From Candidatus Kapaibacterium sp. (GTDB taxonomy: Bacteria; Bacteroidota; Ignavibacteria; Kapaibacteriales; UBA2268), in assembly GCA_963665665.1 (NCBI GenBank), contig OY762428.1, positions 4,128,001 to 4,192,000 of the forward strand: a DNA stretch of 64,000 nucleotides, written 5' to 3'. The notes below the pieces were generated by a model. The model was not told the origin of the DNA. It saw only the letters and a list, made by a program, of their open reading frames with translations, and made no database searches. The position numbers and the translations under genes were made by a program. Below, one piece after another: positions 21,301 to 58,550 of the stretch (its first letter is position 1; every line of letters starts with the position of its first letter).

Positions 21301-22103
21301 ATGTGGACGGAAGCGACTACTACGTTGAGCTTACAAATGATTACAATCCCTTTTCCACAGTTTATTACGGCCTGATGGAAGCCTTCTCGCTAAAAATTGA
21401 CGACAATGAAAATATCGAAAACAAACCTGTTTACATTAATCCGCCTACAAGAGTAAAAAATACTGTTCAGCGATGGTCGGAGATCAGTTTTATTGATGAT
21501 AAAATGATAATCGAAAAGAAGAATGTTAAAACTGGCGGAAACGCTTCCATAATGCGTAGCGGGTACAGGGACGAAGGTGAAGAGCAGCGCATGAAAGATA
21601 TGCAGGAAGCTGTAAGCGACGAATTCCCCTCACTGAAAGTCACCCGGCTTGAATTTGATGATAATTTATATACAACCGGGGACACTCTGTCCTACCGCTA
21701 TGCCTACGAAGTGTATAATCCCATGACCAATATTGCAGGATTGTCATTATTCAAAATTCCATTATCCGACGGACTTAAGCCGGCAGATTTCCTGCCGCTT
21801 ATGGATAGAAAGTTCCCACTGGATATATGGCCTGTTTCGGGCGTGGATAATGAAACAGAATATTTGACAATAAATATTCCCGAGGGAATGATAATTGCAG
21901 AGTTACCTGAAAATACTATCCTGCAGGGGCCCGGAGCTAGCTACAAAATGGAATTTAAACTGAACGGGAACAAATTGGAGATAATCCGGAAAATTGAATA
22001 TAAAACTGATGAAATTCCGGCAGATAAATATAATGCCTTCAAGGACTTTTACGGTAGTGCCCTTACGTCCGATACAAGGCAGATTGCACTTAAGAAAAAA
22101 TAA
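18327..22103 (+). CDS. TPR + DUF3857 / transglutaminase-like domain protein
   Basis: Signal peptide, TPRs, GDCKD and FDHCIA transglutaminase-like motifs. Confidence 0.85.
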   Translation: MCKRTIQLIALAFVFIFSNAYSGQTDYEKAWEELFNNNEKEAAKLFLKAAEDKSGPDSKFGWLMLAMIENQVETEKFAGFNYFQNFIKEEKNPEPYIFALWPTMAVNSGYNAKDERQLDFLNSILESNKYSGTLKAMAAEMIAKHYDQKMEWDDADEYYSMMGAIMDWSFAGEFENISASGFDKNYPPVFKPENDNVFTNKYGAEVSWFSCDKTRTGEWIRFTKHFYFHNAIIYAQTFVNSPKEQTAFIRVGTSGSLKIFVNDSLALSESEERNNNLDTYITEVTLSKGFNRLLLQIGESEAGDSNFMCRITDKEGNPINGLSVQPVYSKSGTAYKPYKGIKPVVHQLDPEKYFEDMLEKYPGNPVFTLMLSETYLLNDKVQKARMVFEKLAEKHPDCVFLLVKEVTVLLRDDNRTELSRKVEKIRDIDPNQPFALTVNFQEAMDNKEYEEAAEYLKSLEDYYDKEIADVYNFRIQLASARQETQKMIELIQEAYAKYPENQAFVNMMFMVQNRVFQDKSKAVDILEDYLDEHFSVSMLKTRAGFYLNDGDMQDAFDLLEVLVESEPDNDSHLNYIGELYYDLGKYAKAREYFSKCIEIAPYVGSYHADMAKTYEQENFVGDAVKLYEKCIYYSPTDYDVRAKIRELKGNRPIFEFFDEPDLYALFENAPEQDKYPEDNSLILLDEVQRVVYGRGASEEKHYMAVKIFNASGIDAWKEMYVPYSNQRYNIEKAEVIKKDGSKIKAEISGSHVVFTTLEEGDGIIIIYKLQDSRHVGLEGNFWDKHYFSMYVPYLKSKYSLLINPDIEFEHRVINSEMKPEITDVNSFKMYVWEKLDQPSIKYETLMPGLGDVGEILHISSIPDWDYVSKWYSRLAKTKAKSDIEVRELVRELFDGKDNLKESEIVRMIYDYIVKNIRYSYVSFRQSGMIPQKASKTINTKIGDCKDVSTLFVAMCSEMDVNSQLVLVDTRDNGKLDMALPSIDFDHCIAAVNVDGSDYYVELTNDYNPFSTVYYGLMEAFSLKIDDNENIENKPVYINPPTRVKNTVQRWSEISFIDDKMIIEKKNVKTGGNASIMRSGYRDEGEEQRMKDMQEAVSDEFPSLKVTRLEFDDNLYTTGDTLSYRYAYEVYNPMTNIAGLSLFKIPLSDGLKPADFLPLMDRKFPLDIWPVSGVDNETEYLTINIPEGMIIAELPENTILQGPGASYKMEFKLNGNKLEIIRKIEYKTDEIPADKYNAFKDFYGSALTSDTRQIALKKK

Positions 22104-22130
22104 GCTTCGTTTCAATTTTTTTAGTGTTTT

Positions 22131-22172
22131 CAGATGTCCGACACCCCCGGGGTATCGGACATCTGTTTTTTT
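22131..22172 (+). terminator. Intrinsic terminator
   Basis: CAGATGTCCGA-CACCCCCGGGGTA-TCGGACATCTG followed by T7. Confidence 0.75.
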
Positions 22173-22232
22173 AAGCTCCGTAGGAGCTTTTTCCCTCCTT
22201 CCGAAGGAGGTGGCCGGGGGGAGGTAGGAAGG

Positions 22233-23387
22233 GTCGAAAGCAAAGAACCAAAGTTTTAACCTATTGCTGCCTTGTTCGGAATCATTGCCGCCTTGTTTGT
22301 AAGCAAAGAAAGAAAACCACCCCTGTATTCCCCTCCTACTTTAGGAGGGGATAAGAAGTTAAATAACATAAGATTAACTCCCCCTCCTTTTGAAGGAGGG
22401 GGACGGGGGGAGGTAGGAAGGGTCTAAGTTATTGCACTGATGTTCTAACTCATTGCCGCCTTATTCTTCTTCAAAGCCCTCTCCTTCGGGGAGGGTTTGG
22501 GAGGGGTCGGAGTCATTGAGGTCTTGTTTGCACCTATTGCAGCAATGTTTTGCTTTATTGCTGCCTTGGTCGGAGGCATTGCTGCCTTGTTCCAAAGCAA
22601 AGAAAGAAAACCACCCCTGTATTCCCCTCCTACTTTAGGAGGGGATAAGAAGTTAAATATCATAGAATTAACTCCCCCTCCTTTTGAAGGAGGGGGGCGG
22701 GGGGAGGTAGAAAGTGTCGAAAGCAAAGCACCAATGGTTTAACCTATTGCTGCCTTGGTCTAAGTTATTGCACTGATGTTCTAACTCATTGCCGCCTTAT
22801 TCTTCTTCAAAGCCCGCCCCTTCGGGGAGGGTTTGGGAGCGGTCGATGCCATTGCAGCAATGTTTTGCTTTATTGATGCCTTGTTCGAAGTCATTGCCGC
22901 CTTGTTTGAAGATAATGACGCATTGTTCGAAATCAATGTACCAATGGTCGACGCTATTGCAGCAATGTTTTGCTTTATTGATGCCTTGTTTGAAGTCATT
23001 GCTGCCTTGGTCGGAGTCATTGCCGCCTTGTTCGAATCCATTGCTGCCTTGGTCGAAGTTATTGACGCCTTGGTTGAAGTTATTGCTGCCTTGTTCGGAG
23101 TTATTGCTGCCTTGGTCGAAGTCATTGATGCCTTGGTTGAAGGCATTGACGCCTTGGTCGAAGTTATTGACCCCTTGTTCGGAGTTATTGCTGCCTTGGT
23201 CGAAGTTATTGACGCCTTGGTCGAAGTCATTGCTGCCTTGGTCGAAGTTATTGACGTCTTGGTTGAAGATAATGAACTCTTGGTCGACACTATTGCAGCA
23301 ATGTTTTGCTTTATTGCTGCCTTGTTCGAAGTTATTGCTGCCTTGGTCGAAGTCATTGAACTCTTGGTCGGAGGCAAAGAACATGTT
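22233..23387. repeat. 21-nt array A (consensus GTCGAAGTTATTGCTGCCTTG), 55 slots including embedded palindromes
   Basis: Unit starts at 22233+21n, checked by hand. Confidence 0.9.
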
Positions 23388-23723
23388 CAGTAAGATCAAC
23401 CAAGTGTTCAGTAAGATCAACCAAGTGTTCAGTAAAGCCAACCAAGTGTTCAGTAAGGTCAACCAAGTGTTCAGTAAAGCCAACCAAGTGTTCAGTAAAG
23501 CCAACCAAGTGTTCAGTAAAGCCAACCAAGTGTTCAGTAAGGTCAACCAAGTGTTCAGTAAGATCAACCAAGTGTTCAGTAAGATCAACCAAGTGTTCAG
23601 TAAGATCAACCAAGTGTTCAGTAAGGTCAACCAAGTGTTCAGTAAGATCAACCAAGTGTTCAGTAAGATTAACCAAGTGTTCAGTAAGATCAACCAAGTG
23701 TTCAGTAAAGCCAACCAAGCGTT
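23388..23723. repeat. 21-nt array B (CAGTAAGATCAACCAAGTGTT), 16 units
   Basis: Near-perfect tandem repeat with variants AAGATC / AAAGCC / AAGGTC. Confidence 0.97.
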
Positions 23724-24826
23724 CAATGAGGCCAAATTTCACTACATTAAGGCCAAACAGTAGTTCAATACCTCCGGCCAAGGCAGTATAAAGTCCTGCC
23801 AACAAAGTATTTAGCCCAAACATATGGATTCTGGTTCAAAACAGCGTTGAAATAAGGAAATTATCCGGTTCATTGAAACCACAGGTTGGGGAATTAAGGC
23901 CGACGGCCTGTTCATTGGGGTGGAATAATGGGTAAACTGAGCAAAAGAATGAGATGTTATGTTGTCATTCCCCGACACGTCGGGGCAGGCTTCCGGAGCT
24001 TGCGACCGAAGAATCCATCTTTCTTTAGTAGCTGATTCCCTCCTTCCCAAATTGAACTTGGGAATGAATTTTTCCTGCAAAGTTCTACTTTGGAATAGAG
24101 AAGCTCAGCTTCAAAAGAAAACTGCATTACGAAGTACAACTTCGTAATGAGGGAGAATGCATAAAGAATGGATTCTTCGCTGGCGCTCAGAATGACATCC
24201 CAGCCTTATAATCGTCAAATTCAATAGCCACGTGCATTCTCGTGGATAAAGTAGGCTAAGAAAAAGAATCCACCCCGACTCGCTGCGCTCGCCACCCCTC
24301 AACGAGGGGAATTTTAAGAATCCACCCCCGCCAGCGGGGGAAAGTGAGTTGATGTCCCCCTCAACGAGGGGGTGGCCGTTAGGCCGGGGGAGGATTCTTC
24401 GATTTGTAATTATTAGTTTATAAATTAAGAATGGATTCTTCGCTGGCGCTCAGAATGACATCCCAGCCTTATAATCATCAAATTCAATAGCCATGTGCAT
24501 TCTCGTGGATAAAGTAGGCTAAGAAAAAGAAACCACCCCTGCCTGTCCCGACGTGTCGGGAACTCGCTGCGCTCGCCACCCCTGAACGAGGGAAATTTTC
24601 CGGAAATCCATCCCCGCCCTTTCCCGACTCGTCGGCGCCAGCGGTGGACATAAAGCCTCCTTCCCAAGCCCCCGCTTGGGAAGGTCATTTTCCTCAAAGC
24701 TTCTCTTTATGATTTCCTGAAGCTCAGTTTCAAAAGAAAACAGCATTACGAAGTGCAAGTTCGTAATGAGGGAAGAATGACACAGAAGATTATAAAATGT
24801 CTCAGGATTATCAATAAAAAAGTGGA

Positions 24827-25240
24827 TTATTTTTGAAGTTCAATGAATTGGTCAGGTGAAATAATCCTTGTACTTTGATAGGGATCTAAAACCAGAAGGT
24901 CTTTGTCTCCGCTGATAATATAATCTGCTTCTGAGCTTACTGCAAGGGATAAATATTTATTATCTTTTTCGTCCCTGCAGCCCGTTACTTCCTTTGTACT
25001 TTCAATCAGGGTAACATTTTTCGAATATTCGTTAAGAAAAGCCAGCCTCAGATCACGGTCTATATATTTATCGAATTTAGGTCGCATTAAAACTGTTTCA
25101 AGCTCATTCAGTGTCTGGATACTAACAAGGATTTCGCCCTTTCGGCGGGAGAGATCAAAAACTTTACGGGGCTTGCTGAAAGGAAAGCAAAGAGCACTGA
25201 TAATAATATTGGTATCAAGTATTATCTTCAAATCAATCAC
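24827..25240 (-). CDS. PIN-domain putative toxin (TIGR00305-like)
   Basis: IILDTNIIISA...CRDEKDNKYLSLA...IISGDKDLL. Confidence 0.9.
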   Translation of the reverse strand: MIDLKIILDTNIIISALCFPFSKPRKVFDLSRRKGEILVSIQTLNELETVLMRPKFDKYIDRDLRLAFLNEYSKNVTLIESTKEVTGCRDEKDNKYLSLAVSSEADYIISGDKDLLVLDPYQSTRIISPDQFIELQK

Positions 25241-25451
25241 CTGACAGTATTTCGAAGAGTTTATCTTCTGTCAGGCCGTTAGCCATAGCCCGAAATCCTA
25301 CTTTATCCATCAGCAATTCAAGGCCATCCCTGTTTTTATCTTCTTTAAGCCATTCGGAAATTAAAAAATTGAGGCTGTTTTTCCTGTCATTGTCAGCTTT
25401 ATCGAAAAGAAGTGCTGTTTTTTCATCTACAGGTATGCTAATTTCTCTCAT
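25233..25451 (-). CDS. Putative antitoxin
   Basis: 72 aa, overlaps the toxin start; GLTEDKLFEIL C-terminus; GGAG RBS. Confidence 0.75.
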   Translation of the reverse strand: MREISIPVDEKTALLFDKADNDRKNSLNFLISEWLKEDKNRDGLELLMDKVGFRAMANGLTEDKLFEILSGD

Positions 25452-25708
25452 TATACTTACTCCAAATTGAAACTTTGTATAATATACGTAATATTATTGA
25501 AAATCTTTTCAAACATACAATTACCAGTATGACTTATGGTCAATTTTATTACCTGACCACCAAAAATTTCTTTACAGTTTCCTGGTTACCCATCTTCACC
25601 TGCAGGTGATAAACAAATAAATTACGCCTCTTTTATTCAATACTACTCTTCGTCCAAATAGTATCATGTTCCACGGATAAAGCCCCGATGGATAACAATA
25701 ATGTTTTT

Positions 25709-56907: not shown

Positions 56908-57705
56908 GCAGAAGGAATTGCCGCCTTGTCTATAGGCATTGATGCCTTGGCCGGAGTTATTGCTGCCTTGGTCCAAATCAAAGCAAGAAAACCACCCCTG
57001 TATTCCCCTCCTACTTTAGGAGGGGATAAGAAGTTAAATATCATAGAATTAACTCCCCCTCCTTCCGAAGGATGCGACCGGGGTGAGGTAGGAGGGGGCG
57101 GAAGCAAAGCACCAATGTTTGATGATATTTCCGCCTTGTTTCGAAGCAAAGAAAGAAAACCACCCCTGTATTCCCCTCCTACATTAGGAGGGGATAAGAA
57201 ATTAAATATCATAAGATTAACTCCCCCTCCTTCCGAAGGATGCGACCGGGGTGAGGTAGGAGGGGTCAGAAGCAAAGAACCAAAGTTTTAACCTATTGCT
57301 GCTTTATTCTTCTTCAAAGCCCTCACCTTCGGGGAGGGTTTGGGAGGGGTCAGGAATATTGCTGCCTTGGTTGAAGTTATTGACGCCTTGGTCGGAGTCA
57401 TTGCCGCCTTGTTTGAAGATAATGAACTCTTGGTCGACACTATTGCAGCAATGTTTTGCTTTATTGATGCCTTGGTCGAAGTTATTGACGCCTTGGTCGG
57501 AGTTATTGATGCCTTGGTCGGAGTTATTGACGCCTTGGTTGAAGTCATTGATGCCTTGGTTGAAGTCATTGACGCCTTGGTTGAAGTCATTGCCGCCTTG
57601 TTTGAAGATAATGATGCCTTGGTCGGAGTCATTGACGCCTTGGTCGGAGTCATTGATGCCTTGGTTGAAGGCATTGAACTCTTGGTCGGAGGCAAAGAAC
57701 ATGTT
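56908..57705. repeat. 21-nt array A, 38 slots including embedded palindromes
   Basis: Unit starts at 56908+21n, checked by hand. Confidence 0.9.
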
Positions 57706-57936
57706 CAGTAAGATCAACCAAGCGTTCAGTAAGATCAACCAAGCGTTCAGTAAGATCAACCAAGCGTTCAGTAAGGTCAAACAAGTGTTCAGTAAGATCA
57801 ACCAAGCGTTCAGTAAAGCCAACCAAGTGTTCAGTAAAGCCAACCAAGTGTTCAGTAAAGCCAACCAAGTGTTCAGTAAAGCCAACCAAGTGTTCAGTAA
57901 GGTCAACCAAGTGTTCAGTAAAGCCAACCAAGTGTT
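57706..57936. repeat. 21-nt array B, 11 units
   Basis: CAGTAA(GAT/AGC/GGT)CAACCAAG(T/C)GTT tandem repeat. Confidence 0.97.
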
Positions 57937-58550
57937 CAATGAGGCCAAATTTCACTACATTAAGGCCAAACAATGATTCAATAACTCCGGCCAAGGCGGT
58001 ATAAAGCCCTGCCAACAAAACATTTAGCCCAAACATTTGGATTCTGGTTCAAAACAGCGTTGAATTAAGGAAATTATCCGGTTCATTGAAACCACAGGAT
58101 AGGGAATTAAGGCCGGCGGCCGCTTCATTGGGGTGGAAGAACGGGTAAACTGAGCAAAAGAATGAGGTGTTATGTTGTCATTCCCCGACACGTCGGGGCA
58201 GGCTTCCGGAGCTTGCGACCGAAGAATCCATCTTTCTTGCGGATAATTTATGAAGAATGGATCCTTCGCTTCGCTCAGGATGACATGGAGTTTTACCATC
58301 GTCAAGTTCAATAGCCACGTGCTTTAGCTCGTGGATAAAGATGCAAGGTGCGGAGGCAAAGAAAAAGAATCCACCCCAGCCTGTCCCGACGTGTCGGGAA
58401 CTCGCTGCGCTCGCCACCCCTCCACGAGGGGAATTTTTCCGGAAATCCACCCCCGCCCTTTCCCGACTCGTCGGCGCCAGCGTGGGACAGGTGGCTTCTT
58501 CCAATTGTTAATTCTTAATTGTCAATTATCAATTAAGAAAACATTCTTTC

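Follow-up and report, generated by a model that had tools for sequence, protein, structure and literature searches.

A family of dispersed, non-coding intergenic repeats on a common 21-nt register in a Candidatus Kapaibacterium genome

A 64,000-nt stretch of the chromosome of Candidatus Kapaibacterium sp. (contig OY762428.1, positions 4,128,001 to 4,192,000), referred to here as the window, contains an array of 21-nt units in which GC-rich palindromic modules are interposed without loss of register. The locus raises the question of what kind of element this is and of why sequences so unlike one another keep a common phase. The feature is very probably one copy of a family of non-coding lattice repeats.

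The lattice counted from 22233 comprises 72 slots of 21 nt. As a previous sequence-only reading had claimed, 21-nt steps keep every recognisable unit in phase through slots 0–54 (22233–23387), and a second array carries the register on to slot 71, at 23724. All parts of this first copy (E38) are given on the plus strand, except for the unstranded junction slot. The copy begins with a GC hairpin module (slots N-K, 22191–22232), which marks the lattice start at −1533 from the anchor at 23724 and lies 87 nt past the stop and terminator-like hairpin of the upstream gene. Four slots follow (22233–22316), holding array-end type units, one of them with an in-frame TAA, and the adapter slot R. The next part is a 105-nt doublet module (slots Q-O-P-N-K, 22317–22421, lattice slots 4–8), in which two GC hairpins with purine-rich tails (−18.2 and −19.9 kcal/mol) are placed around a 21-nt AT-rich slot. 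The unit-like slots W and S (22422–22463), each with TAA as the second codon of the slot-aligned frame, lead to a 42-nt module (slots L-I, 22464–22505; hairpin −22.3 kcal/mol) composed of a C-rich arm, a 4-nt loop, a G-rich arm, a 3-nt loop and a second G-rich block. Further on are five A-type slots, the last being R (22506–22610), a second doublet module (22611–22715, lattice slots 18–22), four unit-like slots (H, 9, W and S, 22716–22799), three of them with an in-frame TAA, and a second L-I module (22800–22841).

The main A-type array (22842–23366) consists of 25 slots with a recurring three-slot higher-order block. It ends at junction slot U (23367–23387), where the strand composition flips and the last 8 nt (23380–23387) are palindromic, with ATG on both strands. 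The B-type array (23388–23723, 16 slots, 94% matches) is built of units that correspond to the reverse complement of the A unit at 13–14 of 21 positions, and the conserved right end (23724–23968) is composed of degenerate B/D-like units with top autocorrelation lags of 21, 42 and 63. The lattice of the second copy (E39, plus strand) occupies 56950–57936, with an L-I module at 57307–57348, an A array at 57349–57684, a junction at 57685–57705, a B array at 57706–57936 and a conserved right end at 57937–58181. Its two doublets (56992–57096 and 57160–57264) are spaced by 168 nt, or 8 × 21, and Tandem Repeats Finder reports a period of 168 at this place. The positions previously given for the doublets and 42-nt modules of both copies proved exact, as did the spacing of the ATTG anchors across inserts, which is 147 nt (22284 to 22431) and 63 nt (22452 to 22515).

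The sequence-only reading had proposed a genome-wide search, and the same lattice was recovered at 53 loci. A 107-nt probe from the right end matched 53 copies at 76.5–100% identity in the genome, which is assembled as a single 5.46-Mb contig; two of the copies are inside the window. The anchored copies are 623–2366 nt long and amount to about 70 kb, or 1.3% of the genome. The slot strings at 53 of 53 loci follow one grammar. On the left are the 105- and 42-nt GC hairpin modules and then the array of A-type units, and the middle is occupied by a palindromic junction slot at 39 loci and by a 546-nt (26 × 21) AT-rich spacer at 14. On the right, an array of diverged reverse complements of A units precedes the degenerate right end. 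Short-class loci have U or the alternative slot 7 as their junction.

Phase is shared with the conserved right-end anchor by 504 of 534 A-type unit matches, though the 53 lattices are not independent trials because of their common descent. The claim that the register is kept throughout holds at 35 of the 53 loci, which have a single phase, and fails at ten with small internal breaks; four loci are split by an insertion sequence. Two controls look beyond the single element: E19 and E20, which are tandem neighbours, differ in phase from each other, and the repeats past the right end give no lag-21 signal. The lattice goes beyond chance and is not confined to one place.

Units are gained and lost in whole 21-nt steps, the element copies are mosaics of shared blocks, and the left ends vary between loci. 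The sole recent copy pair that could be traced (E47/E51) goes back to a segmental duplication of 1.95 kb, into which part of a gene was also taken, and not to a clean transposition; clean transposon ends were not found. The gene context is convergent for 21 elements and divergent for 6, and the orientation relative to the replication direction (31 of 53) is not significant. A consistently linked gene, envisaged by the earlier reading, was not found; in the comparison of flank ORF families of the 53 elements, none was common to more than six.

The family appears to be lineage-restricted, judging by sequence comparison. The right end was found in 0 of 40 genomes of the family and order, a collection that may omit the own genome or near relatives. 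The array and modules gave only hairpin matches of 33–41 nt, in 3 of 400 genomes of the phylum, among which near relatives may likewise be absent. A protein-pattern scan of one genome per species returned two unrelated weak matches, a scan of JGI metagenomes returned 89 pattern matches of which none was confirmed, and plasmid and phage records have no similarity to the element.

The GC modules had been read as independent interruptions of the array, a view that did not survive the genome-wide comparison. Their copies are inside elements in 62 of 71, 71 of 86, 63 of 71 and 68 of 77 cases, always in the element's orientation; the modules are fixed, inherited and orientation-locked element parts. 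A foreign origin, also claimed earlier, gained support, since the modules have no 21-nt autocorrelation and a hairpin like that of the 42-nt module stands solitary and intergenic in another genome. Lattice units of matching phase are found to the left and right of 47 doublets and of 60 modules of the 42-nt type; these many in-phase cases are a few events copied many times. The modal internal length is found in 56 of 59 doublet copies and in 76 of 91 copies of the 42-nt module, while a control interval spreads over 85–90 nt with the mode in 24 of 51. If the two module types were independent events, both lengths would be multiples of 21 by chance in about 1 in 441 cases. The GC hairpin modules also harbour five of the seven copies of an insertion sequence.

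Length is far better conserved in the elements than in neighbouring repeat families. Three lattice parts had 0.031, 0.020 and 0.014 BLAST gap openings per mismatch (42, 30 and 14 gaps were still opened). In five neighbouring non-lattice modules with similar mismatch rates the ratio was 0.186, 0.212, 0.179, 0.171 and 0.225, so that indels per mismatch are 6–15 times lower in the lattice parts. The AT-rich spacer (16% GC) is 546 nt long in 13 of 13 detected copies and aligns without a gap column at 83–94.5% pairwise identity; its variants comprise 90 singleton and 126 shared substitutions and no indel. The spacer has 11–26 stops in each of the six frames of each of the 13 copies and is equally well registered, which, together with the rarity of indels, supports the earlier claim of a constraint on the nucleic acid rather than on a protein. 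Variability among the spacer copies has a 21-nt period (0 of 5000 column permutations matched the observed power), and the first 161 nt of the right end are without gaps in 53 copies.

The protection has limits. Past about 161 nt the right end has gaps in 87 of 282 alignment columns, and in its distal part, from position 247 to 303, copies differ by about 20 nt. Periodic variability was not detected in the right end (824 of 5000 permutations reach the observed value), nor did A units and spacer share variable slot positions (rho 0.25–0.29, p 0.2 or higher). The ten phase-broken loci comprise five with 16–33-nt small-hairpin insertions in slot I, four with single-base indels and one with +9 nt; since breaks occur in 10 of 53 loci, all in the left part of the element, an exact phase is not strictly required along its entire length. 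The contrast with the control families could be partly mutational, and the spacer contains only one homopolymer run of 5 or more.

Our best overall explanation, to which we assign a probability of roughly 0.45, is a lineage-restricted, non-coding, modular intergenic repeat that is constrained in its spacing and most likely acts as a DNA scaffold. For the length conservation taken by itself, we lean slightly towards selection. Each copy would be under selection against indels because its activity would depend on exact nucleic-acid spacing. The most likely form would be DNA in which a constrained block recurs every two helical turns, as a periodic scaffold that either binds protein or is structural. 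The scaffold mechanism is tentative, and its full version is equally doubtful. In that version, the approximately 53 copies would be functional non-coding scaffolds in which selection holds an exact two-turn (21-bp) register over at least 1 kilobase, and each slot would combine a constrained block with a hypervariable core that is short and fixed in length. They may form a periodic nucleoprotein or structural array in chromosome organisation, e.g., a boundary of supercoils or domains at the ends of genes. With no AA/TT periodicity found at 10.5 nt, there is no indication of curvature by classical phased A-tracts. The conserved blocks in A, B and spacer slots differ in sequence, so that a single protein reading all of them is not obvious.

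The alternative that survives best, though we consider it unlikely, is neutral inheritance. The lattice would then be a by-product of descent from a 21-nt tandem array, a selfish or junk satellite without spacing-dependent function, in which in-register slippage or unequal recombination changes the units and modules acquired once or twice were later copied. Very few events, later copied, can account for all the in-phase modules, and phase breaks are tolerated at 10 of the 53 loci. The mosaic structure of the copies, the lack of both orientation bias and a linked gene, and the confinement to one lineage also agree with such a history. However, it does not readily account for the 6–15-fold deficit of indels relative to five neighbouring families of similar divergence, for 13 spacers with 90 singleton substitutions and no indel, for the 21-nt periodicity of spacer substitutions or for two module lengths that are both multiples of 21.

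It is improbable that the active form is a structured RNA or single-strand hairpin, e.g., an RNase III substrate or a regulatory RNA, into which the inverted arms fold as a long imperfect hairpin. In the predicted fold of 23136–23640, A units pair with B units at −163.2 kcal/mol, compared with −120.7 kcal/mol for shuffles (0 of 100 as good), and the z-score of −7.1 is inflated because shuffling destroys the repeats. Unit-level complementarity extends to 13–17 of 21 positions, and covariation was seen at one hairpin pair of the Q-O module, which is C-G in 21 distinct sequences and A-T in 17. However, the complementarity is only partial, the unit number differs between the arms, and a periodic hairpin does not need an exact register. 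Many copies have disrupted stems in the N-K hairpin. Compensatory changes in the spacer consensus fold are confined to 4 pairs (8 cells), and the palindromic symmetry of the spacer (0.511) is within the shuffle range (maximum 0.514). The right end has no conserved fold, with 0 compensatory pairs on either strand. An Rfam 15 scan of 21500–25500 assigned no family and gave three chance-level matches to miRNA models (22–25 bits, thresholds 85–139). Support for a conserved RNA fold was not found.

It is highly doubtful that the arrays belong to a family of genes for heptad-repeat proteins of the coiled-coil type, whether still live or in recent decay. In favour of this reading, 21 nt correspond to seven codons, the modules, at 35 and 14 codons, would preserve the heptad phase, and the arrays are covered by several open frames. 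Among 5.8 billion proteins searched, six matched, all alike in kind; three belong to the own genome and one to each of three separate contigs. The best self-offsets of these gene-caller proteins are all multiples of 7 residues, and in one of those from a separate contig the frame stays open for 233 residues, across two doublets and a pair of 42-nt modules. Pfam and NCBIfam searches with six candidate ORFs gave low-complexity coiled-coil-type matches only. Alanine_zipper exceeded its cut-off (28.3 bits, cut-off 23.1) only on an artificial 324-residue reading through array A, on which DUF948 reached 35.5 bits (cut-off 37.2); NCBIfam Ala_zip_lipo scored 33 bits against a cut-off of 43. The 125-residue ORF that starts from ATG lacks a match to a coiled-coil lipoprotein or DUF948-type family, and two ORFs over the B array have no database matches. 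The protein-atlas recognition score was 957, where known families mostly reach 2300, with no match at 0.9 or more, and there are no homologues outside the lineage.

The distribution of stops speaks against coding. Read in the best frame, 38 of 591 A-type units contain TAA, which is a fixed feature of three slot types. In the first copy, the slot-aligned plus frame carries TAA in slots 1, 9, 10, 24, 25 and 26, as the earlier claim of stops in the 5′ part had it. Stops are not depleted in the D/M arrays either (0.054 per unit in the best frame), and most copies have TAA within the frame of the right-end ORF. In the long class the right-arm frame is not preceded by ATG, GTG or TTG, the two arrays would need different frames, and the spacer keeps the register with all frames closed. 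A period-3 signal is absent from the right end and a codon-position signal from the units, where third positions are not the most variable; a crude dN/dS-like ratio is equally low in closed frames and therefore does not discriminate. We read the element as non-coding, and the family cautions that arrays of this kind are annotated as proteins by gene callers.

An assembly artefact of a repetitive region can be practically dismissed: short-read contigs do break off at the edge of the element (at 22212 for a contig of 29 kb) and cover the array only as 60–110-nt pieces, none of which spans it, but contigs from two studies reproduce local junctions (e.g., 22712–22815) without difference, the genome is a single contig, and one consistent grammar recurs at 53 loci in unique contexts.

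A described equivalent of a dispersed element with a fixed 21-nt register was not found in a limited literature search. REP/BIME and BOX elements and MITEs are short and drift freely in length, unlike the lattice element, which is kilobase-sized and places unlike sequence classes on one 21-nt register. Assignment as a MITE was rejected, since terminal inverted repeats or a target-site duplication were not found and the element, at 623–2366 nt, is not small. A CRISPR array was rejected because the units are contiguous, without spacers. Plasmid iteron and centromere arrays consist of contiguous direct repeats of about 17–22 bp, roughly two helical turns, beside an AT-rich stretch, sometimes with inverted repeat sets, and their proteins bind one helix face. 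The lattice element is similar in its direct repeats of about two turns, the adjoining AT-rich stretch and the inverted repeat sets. Plasmid iterons and partition centromeres were nevertheless rejected, given the 53 chromosomal copies and the lack of a linked Rep or Par gene and of similarity to plasmid or phage records. MIRU loci are simple arrays of 40–100-bp units and, compared with the lattice element, lack an inverted second arm, hairpin modules, a spacer and a register common to unlike sequence classes. According to the available part of the published account, MIRU-type minisatellites have in common with the lattice element one unit family in tandem arrays, tens of intergenic loci and copy change by whole units (PMC3635867).

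BOX elements of Streptococcus pneumoniae are 67–637 bp long, with terminal inverted repeats and target-site duplications (Croucher et al. 2011, PMC3049150). As far as the accessible text of this source describes them, they are likewise composite dispersed intergenic repeats with end modules around variable tandem internal modules, have ORFs on both strands without evidence of translation, are clustered with other repeat families and change in size by whole modules (PMC3049150). Compared by description, the lattice element differs in its size of 623–2366 nt, in clean ends and target-site duplications not being found, and in having several unit types in two inverted arms. Its every part, including non-repetitive stretches, is on one 21-nt register with very few indels.

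REP/BIME sequences of enterobacteria and pseudomonads, in the portions of the sources consulted, are similar to the lattice element in being intergenic mosaics of palindromic units and linkers, enriched at gene ends and favoured as insertion sequence targets (PMC2817692, PMC3333891, PMC1525189). In BIMEs, palindromes alternate in orientation and are tied to the RAYT transposase (same sources). The lattice element departs from this class: all modules inside elements are in one orientation, its tandem unit lattice is absent from BIMEs, and a RAYT (Y1/HUH) transposase was not found among the ORF families in the flanks of the 53 elements.

The design of the GC modules appears to resemble that of published intrastrand-triplex repeats. 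[quoted passage not shown] 2015, PMC4666352). Such motifs were counted in proteobacterial genomes, have many intergenic copies, as the GC modules do, and are linked there to rearrangement-prone loci (PMC4666352); the insertion sequence copies in the GC modules are a comparable feature. A comparable layout of C-rich stem, short loop, G-rich stem, 3-nt or 2-nt loop and second G-rich block can be made out in the 42-nt module and the second doublet hairpin. At 22473–22508 it was recognised by eye, with stems of 7–8 nt and not 9, and the pattern as printed in the source is not matched letter for letter. The GC modules differ from TMECO in not being free-standing motifs here; they are fixed and orientation-locked within the larger lattice element.

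If the scaffold reading is true, the family would be a functional equivalent, in bacteria, of higher-order satellite DNA, in the sense of a satellite that has a function. A non-coding stretch of 16% GC without an indel in 13 copies has the signature of spacing-dependent constraint in non-coding prokaryotic DNA. If this constraint holds up, the elements would offer a tractable case of function encoded in helical register and possibly a new class of chromosomal organising sequence; if it is mutational or historical, they would still be a clean example of higher-order satellite evolution in a bacterium.

Cutting the sequence between window positions 21900 and 23700 into 21-nt steps placed every recognisable unit on a single lattice, occupying slots 0–54 from 22233, which bears out the unbroken register noticed in the sequence-only reading. 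The lattice of this copy extends past slot 54 through a second, more uniform array (23384–23725, period 21, 94% matches in Tandem Repeats Finder) to slot 71. The palindromic inserts lie in whole slots as claimed: the 105-nt doublets, each consisting of two GC hairpins around an AT-rich slot, fill slots 4–8 and 18–22, and the 42-nt modules (slots L-I) fill slots 11–12 and 27–28. The same parts are present in the second copy (about 56950–58181), with doublets at 56992–57096 and 57160–57264 and a 42-nt module at 57307. The stops reported for the 5′ part were also found; the slot-aligned plus-strand frame has TAA in slots 1, 9, 10, 24, 25 and 26, invariably as the second codon of the slot.

The 107-nt segment just after the second array has 53 copies in the genome (5.46 Mb, 38.6% GC, single contig), with 76.5–100% identity. 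Loci anchored on this segment were divided into 21-nt slots and the slots were clustered, and one grammar is common to all 53 loci. The left part of the element consists of at least one copy of an adapter slot and a 105-nt doublet, often followed by a stop-bearing slot and a 42-nt module. Next comes the A array, made up of A-type units, in which blocks of several slots recur. In the short class (39 loci, including both elements inside the window), the A array leads through a junction slot to arrays of B, J or E units; in the long class (14 loci), it leads through an AT-rich spacer to arrays of D and M units. Last comes the conserved right end, about 245 nt long. The in-register part together with the right end measures 623–2366 nt (median 1169, total 70,231 nt). 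Beyond the right end lie other repeat families, off the 21-nt lattice. Such modular intergenic families flank the elements on both sides (in the window at 23969–24800 and 58182–58540) and contain many small indels; four of their motifs have 141, 94, 62 and 32 copies genome-wide.

The register is kept across most of the family. A-type unit matches fall in the phase of the anchor, the first segment of the right end, in 504 of 534 cases, B units have one fixed phase, and the lattice units to either side of a module agree in phase for 47 doublets and 60 42-nt modules. A single phase was found at 35 of the 53 loci. An insertion sequence interrupts four loci, in each of which the 1367-nt gap and the phase shift are identical. 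Small internal phase breaks occur at ten loci: five carry a small hairpin of 16–17 nt within slot I (33 nt being inserted there in one of them), four have single-base indels and one has 9 additional nucleotides. All breaks are confined to the left part of the element, with none between the last module and the right end. The slot-I palindrome, the commonest source of phase breaks, enters the 42-nt module at one fixed point (loci E05, E14, E16, E23 and E35, also E28 and E36). Two tandem neighbouring elements, E19 and E20, are mutually out of phase; hence, the register is a property of an element and not of the chromosome.

The register is partly inherited, and its neutral inheritance is the second-ranked of the four explanations considered. 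The length constraint, however, goes beyond inheritance. In an identical BLAST procedure, gaps were opened at 0.031, 0.020 and 0.014 per mismatch in three lattice parts, compared with 0.171–0.225 for five repeat modules that neighbour the elements in this genome but lie off the lattice, at similar mismatch rates (0.06–0.16 per nt); part of this contrast may be mutational, because homopolymer runs are scarce in the spacer. Anchor-to-anchor distances within modules were modal in 56/59, 74/76, 59/64 and 76/91 copies, whereas a control interval was spread over 85–90 nt. The long-class spacer measures 546 nt (26 slots) in all 13 detected copies, which align with no gaps both in MAFFT and in a second alignment, despite a GC-content of 16%, pairwise identities of 83–94.5%, and 90 singleton and 126 shared variants. 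Its between-copy variability has a 21-nt period, the observed power being reached by none of 5000 permutations, and the differences concentrate in short cores of fixed length within otherwise invariant slots. These cores (e.g., columns 68–77, 113–116, 196–203 and 487–494 of the 13-copy alignment) come in several alternative versions within invariant frames, and the differences look like swapped cassettes and not scattered point changes. The first 161 nt of the right end are gap-free in 53 copies. There is no global no-indel rule: the distal right end has indels, the lattice parts show a few BLAST gaps and ten loci are phase-broken. The proposal that the constraint acts on the nucleic acid is supported. 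The rarity of indels, a non-coding spacer without gaps and the periodicity of its constraint point to probable selection on exact nucleic-acid spacing in individual copies.

The GC-rich modules had been taken for unrelated interruptions of the array. Genome-wide, however, 62/71, 71/86, 63/71 and 68/77 copies of four module parts lie inside elements, in the element's orientation in every case, and most copies outside lie in partial elements. The modules are therefore element components and not independent insertions. They look foreign in origin, judging by sequence: the doublet has no lag-21 autocorrelation, while the top three lags of the right end and the spacer are 21, 42 and 63, and the only matches in 400 genomes of the phylum are 33–41 nt to hairpin cores in three genomes, in one of which the core stands alone as an intergenic hairpin that has the same G-rich tail. 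The module layout (C-rich arm, short loop, G-rich arm, short loop, second G-rich block) is the one described for abundant intrastrand triplex motifs in section 16 of Holder et al. (PMC4666352), although the stems are shorter here and the pattern printed in that section is not exactly met. The hairpins are well kept, with covariation at one loop-closing pair only. The first three doublet slots also occur off the lattice at loci E15 (contig positions ~1353350–1356700) and E42, alternating with another repeat module at a period of 132–133 nt, not a multiple of 21. Four 42-nt modules at 84-nt (4 × 21) spacing lie outside any anchored element at contig positions 4991994–4992330.

The B unit agrees with the reverse-complemented A unit at 13–14 of 21 positions, and the D unit with one A-type variant at 16–17. 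The arm inner ends adjoining the spacer are recognisable inverted copies of each other, and the right end is itself an array of this type that has decayed. The element therefore consists of two arms, in inverted orientation, that go back to a single ancestral 21-nt array. A long hairpin RNA as the active form, ranked third, agrees with the predicted fold of a strand across both arms, which pairs A units with B units at z −7.1, a value inflated because shuffling destroys repeats. No conserved fold or covariation was found in the spacer and right end, and spacer palindromy was not above shuffles.

The last-ranked explanation is a decayed family of heptad-repeat genes. With 21 nt equal to seven codons, and with several open frames, coding was considered seriously, but the evidence is against it. 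The TAA in the best A-unit frame is a fixed trait of three slot types (38/591 units), the best D/M frame shows no depletion of stops (0.054 per unit), and the two arrays require different frames. In the long class, no start codon precedes the right-arm frame, and the spacer has 11–26 stops in each frame of each copy. Across the family, the minus-strand ORF of the right end carries an in-frame TAA in most copies. A period-3 signal is absent, the most variable codon position is not the third, and a crude dN/dS-like ratio is equally low in closed and open frames. Family scans of the ORFs gave low-complexity matches only, with a low protein-atlas recognition score. A collection of 5.8 billion proteins held six such ORFs, of which three belong to this genome and one each to three other contigs; two B-array ORFs had no match in it.

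All copies are intergenic, with convergent flanking genes at 21, co-oriented at 26 and divergent at 6 loci. The consistently linked gene that was sought did not emerge, as no ORF family occurs in the flanks of more than six elements, and element orientation showed no correspondence to replichores. In the window, a PIN-domain protein gene (PIN_3, 79 bits; 24827–25240, minus strand) is overlapped by a small upstream ORF without a family match (25233–25451, minus strand), an arrangement like that of a putative toxin–antitoxin pair. Near-identical elements occur at distant loci. The traced pair, E47 and E51 (contig positions 5035945 and 5307436), is a 1.95-kb inverted segmental duplication with 98% identity that takes in the 3′ part of a neighbouring gene, and another pair shares the right half alone; therefore, recombination among copies and with surrounding repeat families is the only mode of spread that we can show. 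E19 and E20 (1775431 and 1776827) are tandem duplicates of whole elements, 97% identical at a 1396-nt offset. An insertion sequence is found in seven places in the contig (e.g., 2209991–2211100), none in the window; it encodes a DDE_Tnp_1 transposase of 370 residues, its inverted ends are almost identical, and its target duplications measure 11 bp. Of the seven copies, five are inserted in the family's GC hairpin modules and one more in a comparable GC hairpin elsewhere; the insertion sequence is a guest of the family and not its mobiliser.

The lattice family was not found in 40 genomes from the organism's own family and order, in the 400 genomes of the phylum (hairpin cores excepted), in plasmids or phages or, by protein patterns, in one genome per species and JGI metagenomes. 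The three database ORFs from other contigs, which have the same 7-residue offsets, show that near relatives carry the family.

Ranked ahead of neutral inheritance, a long hairpin RNA and a decayed gene family, in that order, is a DNA scaffold, in which the element would present one constrained block per two helical turns. Modular intergenic repeats form a broad class, to which this element adds a new and large member built on a lattice; within it, BOX elements come nearest in design.
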